A DNA stretch of 64,000 nucleotides, from contig JAKPQL010000065.1 in assembly GCA_029547045.1 (NCBI GenBank), positions 23,402 through 87,401 on the forward strand, given 5' to 3'. Source of the stretch: Deltaproteobacteria bacterium. Lineage in GTDB: Bacteria; Desulfobacterota; Desulfomonilia; UBA1062. The notes beneath the pieces were generated by a model. The model did not search any database. It saw nothing but the letters and a program-made list of their open reading frames with translations, and was not told the origin of the DNA. Shown here piece by piece: positions 1,421-36,639 of this stretch; within the stretch, counting starts at the first letter, position 1; each line of letters starts with the position of its first letter. The position numbers and the translations under genes are program-made.

Positions 1421-1588
1421 GTCACCTCCTGCCACACACATTCGCCGCGCTGACAACGCACTGCACCGCCATAGTACCACCCCTTGCAAAGAACAGAAAG
1501 GGGCATGCCCAGCGCAGGGCTATCCCTTGAAAATCTCCTTTCCTCTCATATCATGGATTGAAAGAACGATTCCACGAGGGACCGGGCC

Positions 1589-2791
1589 ATGCTGAACAGG
1601 GTTATCCTCCCCATTACAGCGGCGCTGCTGCTCTCCGGCCTCTTTCTGCTCTTCCTCAGCTACCGGACCGTGGAAGACAGGACCATAGAGCAGCTCAATG
1701 CCCGCCAGGCCATCCACGCCGAGCAGGCCATCCTGACCATTCGAGAATCCTTCGAGCATGACCTGCGGTTCCTGTCATCCCTGGCGGGGAACGCCCACAT
1801 CAGGGAGCTGGACGCCCAGGGCAGGGACCTGATGGACCAGTTCTTCAACGCGCACCGGGAGAACATATCCGCCGTCACCCGCATCGGCAAGGATGGCGAC
1901 ATCACCTACACCTCCCCCCTGGTGCAGGGGGTCATCGGCAGAAATGTCCTGCACCAGAAGCACAATGCGCCGGAGGTCTTCCGGTCGGACAGGCGGGTGA
2001 TCAGCGATGTCTTCAGGGCCGTGCAGGGATACGATGCAGTGGCGGTCCACGTCCCGGTGACCCATGACGGCGTCTTTTTGGGGCGCCTGTCCATCCTGCT
2101 CCCCTTCCAGACCATCTCGAGACGATTCCTGACCACCATCAGGGTGGGCGAAACCGGTCATGCATGGATGGTGGGCAGGGACGGCACCATCCTCTACCAC
2201 CCCGTTCAGGCGTATGTGGGAAGGCCAGCCCGGGAGGTCTTCAGCGAATCCCCGGAGCTCGTCGCAGTGATCGACGCCATGACCGCCGGCGCAAGCGGCA
2301 CTGCAGAGCATCTCTCCCACGGCCAGGTGATGGAAACGGTCTACCGCCCCATCGACCTGGGCACGACCCTGTGGTCCCTGGCGGTTTCCACCCCCCGGAA
2401 AGAGGCCCTGGCCATCATCGCGGGGTTCAGGAACCAGTGGCTGCTCATCATGGCCATCCTGGTGGCGACCTTCCTCCTGTACGGGTACGGCATGGCGCGG
2501 GGACGCCGCGCCCTCGCCAGGCGGGCAGCCGAGCTTGCCGAGGCCAACGAGAGTCTCCAGAAGGCCCTGGCAGAGGTGAAGACGCTCAGCGGCCTGCTGC
2601 CCATCTGCGTGAACTGCCACAAGATCAGGGACGACTCCGGCTACTGGAGCCAGGTGGAGTCCTACGTGGAAAAGCACTCCGATGCCCAGTTCAGCCACAG
2701 TCTCTGCCCGGAGTGCGAGGGGAAGCTCTACGGCGGCGAGGACTGGTACCGGTCCCTGAAAAAGGGGAAGGGTGAGCGCGAAGAAGGCTGA
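1589..2791 (+). CDS. Membrane sensor protein: periplasmic Cache-like domain, TM helix, coiled-coil, and a C-terminal Cys/His zinc-ribbon-like module. It has no kinase, GGDEF or MCP domain.
   Basis: Two TM segments lie at about aa 8-30 and 272-296, flanking a periplasmic domain of about 245 aa. The C-terminus reads 'LAEANESLQKALAEVKTLSGLLPICVNCHKIRDDSGYWSQVESYVEKHSDAQFSHSLCPECEGK'. Confidence 0.6.
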   Translation: MLNRVILPITAALLLSGLFLLFLSYRTVEDRTIEQLNARQAIHAEQAILTIRESFEHDLRFLSSLAGNAHIRELDAQGRDLMDQFFNAHRENISAVTRIGKDGDITYTSPLVQGVIGRNVLHQKHNAPEVFRSDRRVISDVFRAVQGYDAVAVHVPVTHDGVFLGRLSILLPFQTISRRFLTTIRVGETGHAWMVGRDGTILYHPVQAYVGRPAREVFSESPELVAVIDAMTAGASGTAEHLSHGQVMETVYRPIDLGTTLWSLAVSTPRKEALAIIAGFRNQWLLIMAILVATFLLYGYGMARGRRALARRAAELAEANESLQKALAEVKTLSGLLPICVNCHKIRDDSGYWSQVESYVEKHSDAQFSHSLCPECEGKLYGGEDWYRSLKKGKGEREEG

Positions 2792-3134: not shown

Positions 3135-3665
3135 TCAACCCTCAGCCGCAGCGAGCACGGCGTTAAGGTCCGCATGGTCCCCGGCAGAGGTGTTGCGGTG
3201 CTGGAACAGGAGTGTCTCTCCCGGGCCCAGGACAAAGACGCCGCCCTGCTGCCACAGGTCGCCGTCTGGCCGGCCCTGGCGGAAACCCTGCATCATGGCC
3301 CTGATGCCGCGGACGAGGGAGGCTGGGCCCAGGGTCTTCCAGATGCCCCGTTCGAGCCGGAAGGCCCGGTACGCGCTGAGGTCCGGGTTCACGTACATGT
3401 CAGCTGAGAACCCGAGCGTATCCATGAACCGCCTCGCGCCCTCGGGGCTGCCGCTGCCGATGGCGATCAGAGCGACCCCTGAAGCCTCCAGCCTTCCTTT
3501 GATAACCATGAGGGCAGCAGCCTGCTGCCTGGCGAACATTCAGCCGAAGTGGCGGAGAAAGACAAGCACGACCCTCCTGCCCTGCCACAGCGACTCCAGC
3601 GCCACATCCTTCCCGTCGATGCCTGTCACGGAAATGCCCGCAATGCGAGTCTTCAGTTCGTCATA
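3135..3665 (-). CDS. AhpC/TSA (peroxiredoxin-like, thioredoxin fold) protein with an in-frame TGA at 3540-3542, read as a putative selenocysteine
   Basis: The upstream part MTELKTRIAGISVTGIDGKDVALESLWQGRRVVLVFLRHFG-[TGA]-MFARQQAAALMVIKGRLEASGVALIAIGSGSPEGARRF... lies in the same frame as the 134-aa ORF at 3135..3539. The TGA falls exactly where Prx-like proteins carry the redox Cys ('FLRHFGC'). Confidence 0.55.
3513..3529 (-). promoter_or_regulatory. SECIS-like hairpin (GGCAGCA-GGC-UGCUGCC) starting 11 nt 3' of the in-frame UGA
   Basis: The mRNA-sense sequence is UGA AUG UUC GCC A GGCAGCAGGCUGCUGCC. It forms a 7-bp perfect stem with a G-rich apical loop. Its spacing from UGA matches bacterial SECIS elements such as the one in fdhF. 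Confidence 0.35.
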
Positions 3666-3694
3666 GGTCATGGACCCCTCCTCCGAGTGTTTCA

Positions 3695-3707
3695 TTCAAT
3701 TTGAATC
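3695..3707. promoter_or_regulatory. Perfect palindrome ATTCAA-T-TTGAAT in the prx-like/marR intergenic region; candidate MarR operator
   Basis: The 13-bp inverted repeat sits about 30 nt upstream of the start of the Prx-like gene. Confidence 0.35.
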
Positions 3708-3817
3708 TCATGTCTTCTGTAGTAATGAGTCCTTTCTGTTTATCAAGGTGCAGGGGATCAGTGAACAAGGATCTTCCTGCCCGGGGGTCCAGTACCGGGA
3801 ATCGGCTCTTGTCTTTT

Positions 3818-3831
3818 GTTTGACATCAAAC
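3818..3831. promoter_or_regulatory. Palindrome GTTTGA-CA-TCAAAC overlapping a TTGACA -35-like hexamer just upstream of marR
   Basis: The 14-bp inverted repeat lies 13 nt upstream of the marR ATG. This is the usual position for a MarR autoregulatory operator. Confidence 0.4.
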
Positions 3832-3843
3832 TATTCTGGCCCC

Positions 3844-4266
3844 ATGAAACCCGAGCTCATCATGCTCCAGATCAGCAGGATCCGGGACAAGGGACACGCC
3901 TTCCTCGCCCGGGAGCTTGCCGCCAGGAACCTCAAGGGCATCGCTCCCACCCATGGCGACATCCTCTGGGCGCTCTTCACCCACGGCGACCTGCCCATGA
4001 AGAGGATCGCCGAGCTCATCAACCGGGACAAATCCACCGTCACCGCGCTGGTGGCCAAACTCATCGACGGCGGGTACGTGGCGCGCACGGCCCATGACTC
4101 GGACCTCCGCAGCACCGTGGTGTCACTCACCGAGAAAGGCCGTGCCATGCAGAAGGACTTCTGGCAGGTGTCCGAACGCCTGCGGGAAAAGGCATACCGG
4201 GGGCTGTCCGATGAGGAAAAGCACACCCTCGTGAACCTCCTCACGAAGATACATGACAATTTCTAA
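3844..4266 (+). CDS. MarR family transcriptional regulator
   Basis: The 140-aa product has a winged-helix MarR signature ('KRIAELINRDKSTVTALVAKLIDGGYVAR...DLRSTVVSLTEKG'). Its start is taken at the internal ATG (MKPELIM...). Confidence 0.8.
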   Translation: MKPELIMLQISRIRDKGHAFLARELAARNLKGIAPTHGDILWALFTHGDLPMKRIAELINRDKSTVTALVAKLIDGGYVARTAHDSDLRSTVVSLTEKGRAMQKDFWQVSERLREKAYRGLSDEEKHTLVNLLTKIHDNF

Positions 4267-4316
4267 ATTTTTTTCTGCATAAAGTTGGACATCAAACCAA
4301 TGGAGGGGTTCTGAAC

Positions 4317-4743
4317 ATGGACAAGAAGACACAGGATATGATCCAGGCACACCTGGGCTACACGGATGAGGAGATGGCGATCTTCATGGAAAACCCCCGC
4401 AACCTCGATGTCATCGCAAAGGCACCGGCGCTCCAAGGCAAGACCATCATCGCCGAGGTGGTGGAGGCGTCCGGGTGCAACTCGGGGCACAGGAAGGGCG
4501 ACCGGTTCGTGTTCGACGGCGCAGGGGAACCTGATCACCGCGCTGAACCCAAAAAGGGTCTGCTGCTTCGCCCTGAGCCCTCTCCTGCCGCTCATCCACG
4601 CGGCTGACGAACTCCTCTATGCGGGCATCGACCCCAACGCCATGCGCTTCAGGCGCACCGGGTGCTTCGACACCGGCATACAGTGCGGCGGATGGGGCCA
4701 CATCGTGATGGAGATAAGGGTGGAAGACCGCGCAAAGACATGA
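4317..4743 (+). pseudogene. Small Cys-rich conserved protein (TIGR04076-like) split by a +1 frameshift in a GGGG run near 4524-4527
   Basis: Frame 0 ends ...HRKGDRFVFDGAG and frame +1 continues NLITALNPKRVCCFALSPLLPLIHAADELLYAGIDPNAMRFRRTGCFDTGIQCGGWGHIVMEIRV. Removing one G from 'gcaggggaac' joins them into a single ~135-aa protein. A sequencing error is possible. Confidence 0.5.
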
Positions 4744-4759
4744 ATGAAGGGAGATCCAT

Positions 4760-5158
4760 ATGATGAACAGAGAGCAAGCCAGAGAATTCGCGTCGAGGTG
4801 GCTGCCGGCGTGGACCGGGAACGATCCTGAGCGGCTTGCCGCCTTCTATTCCGATGACGTCTTGTATATCGACCCGGCCATACCGGACGGGGTGAGGGGC
4901 AAGGATGCGCTGCTGAGGTATTTCCGGAAACTCCTCGCTGCCAATCCGGAATGGGTCTGGACGCAGATCGAGCCCATTCCCATGGAAGGAGGGTTCGTGA
5001 ACAAGTGGCACGCACGGATCCCGGTGGGACCCAAGGTCCTCGAATGCATCGGCGTCTGCTTCGTGCAGTTCGACGATGACGGGAAGATCAGGCGCAACGA
5101 GGTCTATTTCGACCGGCACGAGCTCATCACCGAGATCATGGCTCTCCAGAAGAAATGA
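4760..5158 (+). CDS. SnoaL-like / NTF2-like domain protein
   Basis: The 132-aa product has the N-terminus 'EFASRWLPAWTGNDPERLAAFYSDDVLYIDPA' and a C-terminal 'IRRNEVYFD' typical of SnoaL/DUF4440 folds. Confidence 0.65.
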   Translation: MMNREQAREFASRWLPAWTGNDPERLAAFYSDDVLYIDPAIPDGVRGKDALLRYFRKLLAANPEWVWTQIEPIPMEGGFVNKWHARIPVGPKVLECIGVCFVQFDDDGKIRRNEVYFDRHELITEIMALQKK

Positions 5159-5234
5159 ATCGCATCCTGTGTCACACTCCGCTTCTCACATGCGTATAAG
5201 GGGCAGGCAGGCAACAAAACACGGGAGGTCAGCG

Positions 5235-6116
5235 GTGCACAACCCCTTCATGGAAAGACAGGGTACGGACCGGAAGGACCAGGAGCTCATCGAGCTGGCC
5301 CTCGCGGGCAGTGGCGCCGACCTCGAGGCACTCATCCTCAGGCACCAGGCCTGGATCTACAACATCGCACTGGGCATGACCTGCGACCCCCACGGAGCCC
5401 AGGACATCACCCAGGAGATCCTGGTGAAGGCGATCACCGCGCTCGCCACCTTTGACAGGGCAAAGGCGTCGTTCAGGACATGGCTCTACCGGATCGTGGC
5501 GAACCACGTGCTGTCGCTCAGACGCATGAAAAGGGAAGAGACCTTTTCCTCCCTCGTCACCCCTGAAGCGTATCACGAGTACGTGGAGTCCATCCCGGAC
5601 GAGAAACCGGGCAACGGGCCCGAGCACAAGGCCCTGACGCGAGAGGCGAGGAACACCTGCATCGCGGGCATGCTCCTGTGCCTGGACCACCGGCAGCGCC
5701 TGGTCTTCATCCTGGGCGCCATCTTCGGGGTGAGCGACGCCGTGGGCAGCGAGATCCTCGAGATGTCCCGGCCGAACTTCCGCAAGATCCTCTCCCGGTC
5801 GCGGAGCAGGCTGGCGAATTTCTTCACCGGCACGTGCAGCCTCGTAAACGAGAACAACCCCTGCAGGTGCGACAGGTGGATCGAACCCATGCAAAGGCTC
5901 GAGCTCATCGGGAGAGATGATGCGTCCGGACAGACCCGTTTCCGGCGTATCGCCGAGGTCGTGGAGGGTCGGGCCAGGGAGTTCCGCGACTTCTATGACC
6001 GTGAGGTGGTGGGCCTCTACCGGGAGCTGCCCTTCGCGGATCCGCCGGACATGGTGTCCTGGATCAGGAGGGCAATAACCACCGAGGAGTTCAAGGGTTT
6101 CATGGACCTGCACTAG
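5235..6116 (+). CDS. ECF (sigma-70 family) RNA polymerase sigma factor with a ~100-aa C-terminal extension
   Basis: Region 2 reads 'AQDITQEILVKAITALATFDRAKASFRTWLYRIVANHVLSLRR' and region 4 reads 'VFILGAIFGVSDAVGSEILEMSRPNFRKILSRSRSRLANF'. An extra C-terminal region contains 'CSLVNENNPCRC'. The GTG start at 5235 has GGAGG 5 nt upstream. Confidence 0.75.
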   Translation: MHNPFMERQGTDRKDQELIELALAGSGADLEALILRHQAWIYNIALGMTCDPHGAQDITQEILVKAITALATFDRAKASFRTWLYRIVANHVLSLRRMKREETFSSLVTPEAYHEYVESIPDEKPGNGPEHKALTREARNTCIAGMLLCLDHRQRLVFILGAIFGVSDAVGSEILEMSRPNFRKILSRSRSRLANFFTGTCSLVNENNPCRCDRWIEPMQRLELIGRDDASGQTRFRRIAEVVEGRAREFRDFYDREVVGLYRELPFADPPDMVSWIRRAITTEEFKGFMDLH

Positions 6117-6229
6117 CGTCCGCGGAGCCGGGGCAGCAGGTCGAATCAGGTGCTTTCCATGCGCGGGGATATCCCTGCGCGCATGATGGAGGATCCGTTT
6201 CCAAACAGAATAGACAAAGGAGAAGGACG

Positions 6230-6592
6230 ATGAATGCCAGACTTTCATATTGCGGTATCGACTGCAGCGCCTGCCCGACTTACCGGGCCACCCAGGCGGA
6301 CGACGACGCGAAGCGGGCCAAGGTGGCGGCCTTCTGGTCCAGGATGTTCGGCACAGAGATCGCACCCTCGGACATCAACTGCGACGGGTGCAGGAAGGAC
6401 GGCGGCAGGCTCTTCGGCCACTGCCGAACCTGCGCGGTCAGGCTGTGCGCCAGGGACAGGGCGCTCGCATCATGCGGCCGCTGCGGGGAGTACTCCTGCG
6501 ACAAGCTCGACGGCCTGCTCGCCCTCCTGCCCATGGAGGAGCCGCGGAAGAACCTTGATGCCATCCGGCAGGGGAGCATGGACCCTCTCTGA
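6230..6592 (+). CDS. DUF3795 family Cys-rich protein
   Basis: The protein begins 'LSYCGIDCSACPTY' and has further CxxC pairs at CDGC and CGRC. An AAGGAGAAGGA RBS lies upstream. Confidence 0.7.
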   Translation: MNARLSYCGIDCSACPTYRATQADDDAKRAKVAAFWSRMFGTEIAPSDINCDGCRKDGGRLFGHCRTCAVRLCARDRALASCGRCGEYSCDKLDGLLALLPMEEPRKNLDAIRQGSMDPL

Positions 6593-35475: not shown

Positions 35476-36639
35476 TCACCGATTGTATGCGATGGATGCA
35501 ACGGCATCAATGGTCTCGTCGATATCCCGGGCCGTGTTGAAGAACCCGATGCTCGCCCGTACGGTGCCCTGGGGGAAGGTCCCCAGCGCCCTGTGGGCCG
35601 AGGGCGCGCAATGCAGCCCGGACCGGATCATGATGCCGAACTCGTCGTCGAGCCTGAAGGCCACTTCGGAGGGCTCCACGCCCTCCAGGGTGAAGGACAC
35701 CACGGCGATCCTGTGATAAGGGTCCCGCGGGCCGATGACCCTTATGCCCTCGATGGCGGCGAGGCCCTCCATGAGTCTGCGGGCGAGCGTCATCTCGTGT
35801 TCCCTGATCCGCTCGACGCCCTGGGAGGCCACGAAGTCGATCCCGGCGAGCAGCCCAGCGATGCCGGGAGTGTTCGGGGTGCCGGACTCGTACTTGTCCG
35901 GCATGAAGAGCGGCTGCTCCTCGCGCTCCGAGGCGCTCCCCGTCCCGCCCATGGCCAGCGGCGAGATGCGTGCTTCGAGCCCTTCCCGGACATAGAGCCC
36001 CCCGGTTCCCTGGGGACCGTACAGGGACTTGTGCCCGGTGAAGGCGAGGAGGTCTATGCCGTCGCGTCCCACGTCGATGGGCAGGCACCCGGCGGTCTGG
36101 GAGGCATCCACGCACAGGGGGATGCCCCGCTCACTGGTGATGGCCCCCACCTGGGACACGGGCATGACGGTGCCGGACACGTTGGACGCATGGGTGAGCA
36201 CCACCAGCGCGGTCTGCCTTCTGATGGCCTTCCCCACGTCGTCCGGATCGAGGGTTCCGTCCGCGGAGCATGCCACCACGCTCACCTCGACGCCCCGCAG
36301 CTCCATGGCGCGCAGGGGCCGCATCACCGAGTTGTGCTCCATGGCGGAGGTGATGACGTGGTCCCCGGGCCCGAGCATGCCCTGGATGACTATGTTCAGC
36401 GCCCCGGTTGCGTTCCCGGTGAACACGAGCCGCAGGGGATCGGATATTCCGAACAGGGCCGCTGTTTGCCGTCGGGCCTCTGCGATGACGCGGGCCGCCT
36501 CTATGGACAGCGTGTGCCCGGACCTCCCGGGGTTCGCAGCTGCCTCCCTGATGATATGCTCCACGGCACGCGGCACGCATTCGGGCTTGGGCCAGGTGCT
36601 CGCGGCGTTGTCGAGATAGATGCGCAGCTTCTCTTCCAT
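35476..36639 (-). CDS. Cysteine desulfurase family protein (class V aminotransferase; possible selenocysteine lyase)
   Basis: The PLP lysine region is 'LAFTGHKSLYGPQGTGGLYV' and the catalytic Cys loop is 'RSGLHCAPSAH'. AAGGAAGA RBS is present. Confidence 0.85.
   Translation of the reverse strand: MEEKLRIYLDNAASTWPKPECVPRAVEHIIREAAANPGRSGHTLSIEAARVIAEARRQTAALFGISDPLRLVFTGNATGALNIVIQGMLGPGDHVITSAMEHNSVMRPLRAMELRGVEVSVVACSADGTLDPDDVGKAIRRQTALVVLTHASNVSGTVMPVSQVGAITSERGIPLCVDASQTAGCLPIDVGRDGIDLLAFTGHKSLYGPQGTGGLYVREGLEARISPLAMGGTGSASEREEQPLFMPDKYESGTPNTPGIAGLLAGIDFVASQGVERIREHEMTLARRLMEGLAAIEGIRVIGPRDPYHRIAVVSFTLEGVEPSEVAFRLDDEFGIMIRSGLHCAPSAHRALGTFPQGTVRASIGFFNTARDIDETIDAVASIAYNR

Follow-up and report, generated by a model that had tools for sequence, protein, structure and literature searches.

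A C-terminal Cys4 module in a bacterial dCache_1 receptor: candidate output domain of a very large and apparently undescribed family

How does a membrane receptor act on the cell when only ~97 of its residues form the cytoplasmic portion and none of the usual output domains is found among them? The question is raised by an open reading frame (ORF) at 1589..2791 (+) of a 64,000-nucleotide stretch of DNA from Deltaproteobacteria bacterium (assembly GCA_029547045.1, contig JAKPQL010000065.1, positions 23,402 to 87,401 of the forward strand), referred to below as the window. The ORF is complete, with an ATG start and the stop codon included, and encodes a protein of 400 residues that an initial annotation, made from the letters alone, described as a membrane sensor with a short Cys/His segment as its sole output. 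In the best reading of the sequence comparisons and predicted structures described here, the cytoplasmic helix and the Cys4 module that follows it would together make up a self-contained domain for signal output, belonging to a very large family that has no name.

Architecture of the receptor and its C-terminal module

The two transmembrane (TM) helices and the Cache-like periplasmic domain of the initial annotation were both recovered. Kyte-Doolittle analysis with a 19-residue window places TM helix 1 at approximately residues 5-25 (1601..1663, +, peak 2.59) and TM helix 2 at approximately residues 284-303 (2438..2497, +, peak 2.11). Between them, residues 35-267 (1691..2389, +) match the periplasmic dCache_1 domain (Pfam PF02743) with E=5.8e-17 and 62.5 bits, above the curated cut-off of 45, and the HK-GC-Chemotax_sensor family (PF22309) also matches the sensor at residues 79-171 (E=3.4e-9). 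The sequence RGRRALARR directly after TM2 agrees with the positive-inside rule. TM2 leads straight into a cytoplasmic signalling helix, residues 304-337 (2498..2599, +), with neither a HAMP nor a PAS domain in the protein; this helix is predicted by AlphaFold with a predicted local distance difference test score (pLDDT) of 81-91, terminates in ALAEVKTLSGLL and contains the conserved motif AL.EVKTLSGLL.

The Cys4 module occupies residues 338-382 (2600..2734, +), with conserved Cys, Pro and Trp residues, and reads P338-I-C340-VN-C343-HKIRDDSGYWSQVESYVEKH363SDAQFSH370SL-C373-PE-C376-EGKLY. It is followed by a short C-terminal tail, residues 383-400 (2735..2788, +), which together with the preceding LYG forms the variant 'LYG..(D/E)WY' found in 23 of 386 family members and which is kept in the orthologues P0270-P0273. 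The four cysteines are arranged as C340-x2-C343-x29-C373-x2-C376, and the two histidines are H363 and H370; the Cys/His motif noticed initially is real, with its spacing now corrected to H-x6-H-x2-C-x2-C, six residues rather than five separating the histidines. A profile of the module family scores 128.7 bits (E=2e-39) on this protein, which is its sole match within the window, and searches of the same 64 kb with a regular expression and a hidden Markov model found no further copies. The protein carries the full family signature, namely the 2/29/2 cysteine spacing, a preceding L-x-G-L-L-P-I and a following K-x-I-R-D-D-x-G-Y-W...E.Y, with all invariant positions present; its only oddity is a His at position 7 of the module, which is Lys in 95% of members. 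It also has the module in the characteristic place, at the C terminus behind a helical linker and with input domains only upstream.

No match to HisKA, HATPase_c, GGDEF, EAL, HD, MCPsignal or STAS was obtained with Pfam over the 400 residues, even at E≤1, and NCBIfam gave no match to the protein; the initial annotation was right that a known output domain is absent. The protein lacks the dimerization and histidine phosphotransfer (DHp) and HATPase_c domains that a sensor histidine kinase possesses and the GGDEF, EAL or HD-GYP profiles that mark turnover of cyclic di-GMP. It also lacks the MCPsignal hairpin domain of a methyl-accepting chemotaxis protein (MCP), for which its cytoplasmic part is too short. 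As a sensor it is an ordinary dCache_1 receptor, with a match above the curated threshold between two TM helices; the output is the unusual part. The order of TM1, periplasmic double Cache domain, TM2 and helix is shared with dCache_1 histidine kinases and chemoreceptors, but these continue into DHp/HATPase_c or an MCP domain where the present protein has a helix and the Cys4 module. Among 119 matches to the full-length query, 118 have the module, and the sole exception (P0275) is a related dCache protein, 34% identical over the sensor, that is fused to a histidine-kinase ATPase (HATPase_c).

The initial annotation had allowed that the ORF might be the N-terminal fragment of a longer kinase. 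That it is a piece of a histidine kinase or MCP, shortened through a frameshift or faulty assembly, has a negligible probability: nothing was found in its favour, the idea stemming only from the fact that Cache sensors usually bear such outputs, and the downstream genes are on the opposite strand or unrelated. The identical 400-residue product occurs on six independent contigs of different assemblies (mostly JGI and ENA metagenomes, with one NCBI metagenome-assembled genome (MAG)), orthologues at 61-88% identity have equal length and the same C terminus, and the module is at the extreme C terminus in all 386 family members examined. The 100% identical NCBI record, from MAG GCA_035375005.1, is named 'cache domain-containing protein [Deltaproteobacteria bacterium]'.

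Extent, conservation and domain partners of the module family

Searching with the last 90 residues brought up 278 proteins, with identities of 55-75% over ~60 residues. The family profile, made from an alignment of 46 of these (A1), was scored on 1.84 billion cluster representatives (50% identity) and matched 24,284 of them at E≤1e-3, 20,067 at E≤1e-10 and 4,853 at E≤1e-30, totals that overstate the number of distinct genes in that some representatives are metagenomic fragments. The family is clearly very large, and the initial remark that many sensor proteins end in this module is well founded. In each large search the best 120-150 matches were inspected, so that rare fusions to known outputs may have escaped. 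A scan of one genome per species gave at least 588 confirmed module loci, and the best 80 of these come from more than 15 bacterial phyla, including Thermodesulfobacteriota (many orders), Spirochaetota, Anaerolineae, Calditrichota, Bacteroidota, Ignavibacteriae, Lentisphaerae, KSB1, Sumerlaeota, Verrucomicrobiota, Gemmatimonadota, Acidobacteriota, Nitrospirota, Fidelibacterota, Latescibacterota, Hydrogenedentota and Aegiribacteria. The module is present in the anaerobic Proteobacteria and spirochaetes to which it had been ascribed, but its spread is much wider. A search of plasmids gave a single match, an unannotated module remnant at 36163-36303 of the Dongshaea marina plasmid NZ_CP028898.1 (L095). 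An IS21 transposase stands between this remnant and a GAF-domain gene, and the whole has the appearance of a sensor-module gene broken up by an insertion sequence.

As the initial annotation had supposed, the module matches no Pfam or NCBIfam family; at E≤10, eight module sequences gave only sub-threshold Pfam matches to assorted unrelated CxxC zinc-knuckle families. PADLOC and PHROGs returned nothing meaningful for the module, and across the whole window (62.8% G+C) not one Rfam family attains its gathering score. No description of the module was found in the full-text literature, which was searched also with sequence and motif strings and does not include subscription journals, so that a prior mention is possible, or in signalling census papers that were read selectively for it. 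The family appears to be undescribed.

Conservation was calculated from 304-308 modules; the two CxxC pairs lie 29 residues apart in 308 of 308. The four cysteines, P1 and W16 are conserved in 100% and G14 in 99%, followed by G-2 (97%), R10, D12 and E20 (96% each), K7 and L-4 (95% each), Y22 (92%), D11 (89%), Y15 (88%) and K8 (79%). The consensus of the exposed loop, CKKIRDDxGYW..E.Y, is nearly invariant in the family. Beyond the last cysteine the sequence is short: the median length is 15 residues and the 5-95% range spans 10-26, and the present protein has 24. The net charge of the module core averages -0.6 in the family and is -3 in the present protein, and that of the tail is -1.2. The initial annotation had taken the module for a Cys/His one and had proposed that the family be examined for a conserved Cys4 or Cys3His ligand pattern; of these residues only the four cysteines are invariant. 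The two histidines are conserved in 82% and 89% of modules, and both are missing from a divergent variant linked to a REC domain (L013:2591-3166, +; profile E=1e-11). This variant reads ILPLCCVCKSIRDDAGREPGTGKWMVLEEYVWQKAGLAPSSTYCPACAQK and has an insertion before the Trp, but keeps P-L-C-x2-C-K-x-I-R-D-D, W, E-x-Y and C-P-x-C. Since the histidines are replaceable and absent from this variant, the ligands of the putative metal are most likely the four invariant cysteines, and the metal is most likely Zn(II). The insertion and the missing histidines of this variant indicate that the superfamily is wider than the core pattern.

The partners of the module seen so far are input or receiver domains only. 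Of 77 full-length representatives analysed with Pfam, 53 have PAS, 6 REC, 6 HAMP, 5 MASE6 and 4 GAF, with single cases of dCache, dCache_3, HisKA_7TM, 4HB_MCP and Reg_prop/Y_Y_Y; GGDEF, EAL and HD-GYP do not figure in the top 25 by frequency of the 41 Pfam families found in this set, and no Pfam family covers the module itself. The Pfam lists of the 119 full-length-query matches add MASE3, SBP_bac_3, CHASE, CHASE4, 7TMR-DISM, sCache and many TPR domains, and MASE1 is the partner at one locus (L067). The REC partners carry canonical receiver motifs. Stand-alone genes of 70-100 residues that encode only the helix and the module are found on long contigs. The C-terminal position and the input-only partners place the module in the position of an output domain, for which it is the sole candidate in these proteins.

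The coupling between sensor and module is equally regular. In 88 of 97 proteins exactly 33 residues separate the 'DIT' motif at the close of a PAS domain from the first residue of the module, and in 2 more the linker has 40 residues, that is, 33 plus one heptad. Positions -22 to -1 before the module show a large hydrophobic residue at intervals of 3-4, and the linker sequence is itself partly conserved (ERE.LI.EL..AL.EVKTLSGLL). Transmission through helices or coiled coils to dimeric outputs is established for PAS-kinase and PAS-cyclase proteins. The fixed linker, its hydrophobic periodicity and the predicted helix together suggest transmission of the same kind, through a helix or coiled coil to a dimeric output.

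Two modules were found in each of 40 of 268 proteins (P0121-P0160, e.g. P0146, P0122 and P0123). Most of these are head-to-tail repeats of sensor plus module (a MASE-like TM region and module twice, or REC and module twice), and they may represent either paralogues in tandem or gene calls that were fused. P0146 instead has a REC domain and then two modules in immediate succession, of which the second lacks a helix in front of it. At a locus of a Bacteroidota MAG (L027:465-3158 and 3466-6231, +), two adjacent paralogues of ~900 residues each have a large N-terminal region, one TM helix and a module, which there occupies the place of the kinase, receiver and AraC domains in the hybrid two-component sensors of Bacteroidota.

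Predicted fold and proposed mode of action

AlphaFold models, computed without metal, were obtained for 90 residues (pLDDT 73.6) and for a 63-residue core based on 121 sequences (pLDDT 68.2). Both have a β-hairpin that bears the first CxxC, a helix (QIE.YI), a short strand (SHG-I) and the second CxxC at the N terminus of a second helix. The fold predicted at this modest confidence looks more like a treble clef than a two-hairpin zinc ribbon, so that the 'zinc-ribbon-like' character given in the initial annotation is not established. The β-β-α-β-α topology of the CR3 region of papillomavirus E7 resembles that of the 63-residue core model. No solved fold matches: Foldseek found no match to the module model in the PDB, and when all PDB sequences were searched with the profile no significant match emerged, the best hit being an unrelated enzyme at E=0.047 and the Rad50 zinc hook appearing at E=0.55-1.1.

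Small Cys4 zinc modules associated with helices or coiled coils include the N-terminal zinc-binding domain of ClpX, DksA/TraR, the Zn-ribbon of HP0958 (COG1579), the Rad50 hook and the zinc-binding anti-sigma (ZAS) proteins. These serve in protein-protein or protein-RNA contacts. The present module resembles them in its paired CxxC motifs and its location next to a helix, but differs from all of them in spacing and in its conserved loop. ZAS proteins have H-x3-C-x2-C (zf-HC2) inside an anti-sigma helical bundle, the module H-x2-C-x2-C with a His conserved in 89%, and no zf-HC2 match was found at E≤10. The C4 finger of DksA/TraR is C-x2-C-x17-C-x2-C as compared with a spacing of 29 here, and neither a zf-dskA_traR match at E≤10 in Pfam nor a PDB match was obtained. 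Zinc sites of the form CxxC-x29-CxxC occur in papillomavirus E6/E7 and in the CM domain of the GspE/EpsE secretion ATPases (PMC5061722). Comparison with HPV16 E7 by hhalign gave a probability of 0.6%, and in GspE the motif spacing is variable and the loops are unconserved; the shared spacing appears to be a coincidence in both cases.

The mechanism that we propose is a dimeric Cys4 metal module, driven by the helix, by which many sensors would be linked to a single common target, probably a protein, and we give it somewhat less than an even chance. The periplasmic dCache_1 domain would bind a small ligand, and the resulting conformational change would pass through TM2 and the continuous ~34-residue helix into the 45-residue module. 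A metal, most likely Zn(II), on the four invariant cysteines would hold the module together, and modules would most likely operate in pairs, carried by a parallel dimer of helices. Movement of the helices on receipt of a signal would then alter the relative position or the exposure of the two modules. Their near-invariant exposed loop, CKKIRDDxGYW..E.Y, would bind one shared cellular target, most probably a protein, and sensors with different inputs would in this way converge on the same downstream process, as the tips of MCPs all bind CheA/CheW. Metal binding, dimerisation, the target and the cellular response are all inferred.

The argument for a shared target comes from the residues that are not ligands. 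K7, R10, D12, G14, W16, E20 and Y22 are 92-100% conserved, and modules attached to unrelated sensors in more than 15 phyla are 50-75% identical. So constant a non-ligand surface, maintained across unrelated inputs and phyla, suggests that all modules address the same target, and the slightly acidic core (more so in the present protein), together with membrane anchoring close to the module, makes a protein likelier than DNA or RNA. The tip of MCPs, GGDEF and HisKA offer a parallel: they likewise are conserved C-terminal outputs on helical linkers of fixed or heptad-periodic length, combined with diverse sensors and encoded by scattered genes. They have no kinship with the module in sequence or fold, and the module is distinguished by its ~45 residues and its putative stabilisation by metal.

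A zinc finger that binds nucleic acid could also end such proteins, which would then be one-component or response regulators acting directly on DNA or on a conserved RNA; the helix would fix how two half-site readers are arranged. The basic cluster C-K-K-I-R next to the first knuckle (K7 95%, K8 79%, R10 96%) fits this idea, small Cys4 fingers often bind nucleic acids, and proteins that join REC to the module need some output. We nevertheless consider it unlikely. The core is slightly acidic and the tail is acidic as well, many members including the present protein have their membrane tether ~34 residues away from the module, and no conserved, divergently transcribed target genes were seen among the loci examined. 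Moreover, the putative reading surface is nearly identical across unrelated inputs and phyla, whereas sequence-specific transcription factors differ in that their reading residues diverge between paralogues. An archaeal output likewise predicted to bind nucleic acid, and conceptually among the closest to the module, is HalOD2, a halobacterial response-regulator output described by Galperin et al. 2018 (PMC5847659) as a helical segment with two CXXC motifs, a predicted Zn finger and DNA or RNA binder that is the sole output of REC proteins. HalOD2 is set apart by the 20-25 residues between its CXXC pairs and its restriction to a few halobacteria, as compared with a spacing of strictly 29 and a distribution over many bacterial phyla for the module; no similarity between the two was detected, though no direct comparison of them was made.

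Paired modules might instead form a site for a small molecule and act as a receptor or minimal enzyme for a nucleotide or second messenger, a chemical output comparable to that of GGDEF proteins or cyclases. Invariant polar residues (R-D-D-x-G-Y-W and E) are typical of enzymatic outputs, and a strictly fixed helical linker with a heptad increment, scattered genes and very diverse inputs would all be expected of one. The module, however, adds only ~45 residues to the helix, we know of no precedent for a catalytic domain as small as this, and no similarity to a nucleotide-binding or catalytic family or fold was detected in Pfam, PDB sequences or Foldseek, which leaves this alternative quite improbable, somewhat more so than nucleic acid binding. 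Three modes of action had been considered in the initial annotation: partner binding, as in the dimeric module proposed here, fits best, direct binding of nucleic acid fits less well, and proteolytic release has nothing behind it.

Gene neighbourhood and implications for signalling

The gene at 1589-2791 stands alone in the window. A Shine-Dalgarno-like GAGGGA lies ~8 nucleotides upstream of its ATG, and a σ70-like promoter match, TTGAAA-16-TATCAT (1527..1554, +; 10/12 positions), lies ~35 nucleotides 5' of the ATG; shuffled sequences are expected to contain 0.3 such sites, and the match is a resemblance to the consensus that does not imply function. The divergent neighbour is an ADP-forming acyl-CoA synthetase-like gene (32-1489, -), and after a gap of 340 nucleotides the convergent neighbour is an AhpC/TSA_2 gene (3138-3539, -). 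Genes for MarR, SnoaL_2, a sigma-70-family protein, DUF3795, a 4Fe-4S/TrmB protein and DUF362 follow. The SnoaL_2 gene (4760-5158) overlaps a long ORF (5076-6116) within 4760-6116 (+); the 346-residue product of this ORF matches Sigma70_r2 only, at residues 86-153, has a ~190-residue C-terminal extension without a Pfam match and may be a sigma factor of the extracytoplasmic function (ECF) type with an extension. The gene for the Cys-rich DUF3795 protein (6230-6592, +) is 3.4 kb downstream of the sensor gene, another (L088:10535-10885) is ~5 kb from a stand-alone module gene, and the tandem-module tail of P0146 has a weak DUF3795 match (E=0.037); the proximity is probably due to chance, DUF3795 being common in anaerobes.

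The scattered and mostly stand-alone genes of the family, exemplified by the present gene with its own promoter-like site and its divergent and convergent neighbours, support the dimeric module with a shared target. Conserved gene neighbours, which the initial annotation had suggested as a guide, did not emerge in the 80 loci. When 819 ORFs from these loci were clustered by blastp, the largest cluster besides the module proteins spanned 5 loci, and a Pfam census of 126 immediate neighbours gave 176 families, none of them found more than 8 times; the commonest domains were PAS (8), HATPase_c (7) and REC (5). Nothing recurrent was found around two stand-alone modules and three REC-module genes, of which two, of identical length and probably orthologues, have a YceI gene upstream and the third has an HD gene downstream. 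Zinc-transporter-type genes of the CDF family (cation-efflux, ZT_dimer; L032:3938-4843 and L089:11733-12632) are beside or near module genes in unrelated genomes, a proximity that is likely coincidental, as it is not recurrent in the 126-neighbour census.

The AhpC/TSA-type gene just downstream of the present gene bears on the idea that the Cys4 site is a sensor rather than an output, either a thiol/zinc redox switch or a rubredoxin-like Fe(Cys)4 or Fe-S centre by which anaerobes would register oxidants or metal status. Such a role would suit the four invariant cysteines, which include a CPxC knuckle as in rubredoxins, and the enrichment of the family in anaerobic lineages (Thermodesulfobacteriota, Spirochaetota and Anaerolineae). 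It is very unlikely all the same: tens of thousands of proteins, canonical REC receivers among them, would be left without an output, a simple redox switch needs neither the conserved non-Cys surface nor the conserved linker length, and the family occurs also in Gemmatimonadota, Acidobacteriota and Verrucomicrobiota.

At the Bacteroidota locus L067, within a cluster of two-component genes, the MASE1-module gene and the beginning of a hybrid histidine-kinase gene overlap. This arrangement, and the presence of HATPase_c among the commonest neighbour domains, would be expected if the helix and module were a mere dimerisation or stabilising cap and the proteins acted indirectly, for instance in mixed complexes with histidine kinases or by sequestering ligand. 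A count of 7 in 126 is nevertheless low and no more than signalling-rich genomes would be expected to give, most loci have no kinase nearby, and a cap does not need an invariant exposed RDDxGYW loop; we rate a cap as low as a redox centre.

Several points weigh against the dimeric metal module with a shared protein target. The structure models have modest pLDDT values, and the first knuckle is their weakest part; metal binding and dimerisation are both inferences. The invariant polar residues, the fixed linker and the scattered genes fit a small catalytic or ligand-binding domain equally well. No partner emerged, the gene neighbourhoods across the 80 loci give no pointer to a target, and an arrangement of many sensors on one hub is conjectural for any single organism.

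What the family shows at present is a sensor architecture that is familiar and modular, joined to a putative output domain that appears to be undescribed and is very widespread. We would tentatively suggest, with confidence appreciably below even, that the module is a major, as yet unrecognised output channel beside histidine kinases, chemoreceptors, nucleotide cyclases and DNA-binding one-component regulators, by which very diverse sensors in many phyla (Cache, PAS, GAF, REC, CHASE, MASE, TPR) act on a single hub in the cell or else produce or bind some unknown signal. Censuses of signalling sort proteins by their output domains, and proteins that end in the module are labelled only 'PAS domain S-box protein', 'response regulator' or 'cache domain-containing protein', so that for practical purposes they are tallied without an output. 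Should the module be a genuine output, a pathway that has not been mapped receives input from at least 20,000 sequence clusters in more than 15 phyla, and the module's small size and fixed-length helical coupling to sensors of the PAS/LOV type would make it attractive for engineered switches. Much of its diversity is in sulfate reducers, syntrophs and other environmental anaerobes, and identification of the target would open a new signalling route.

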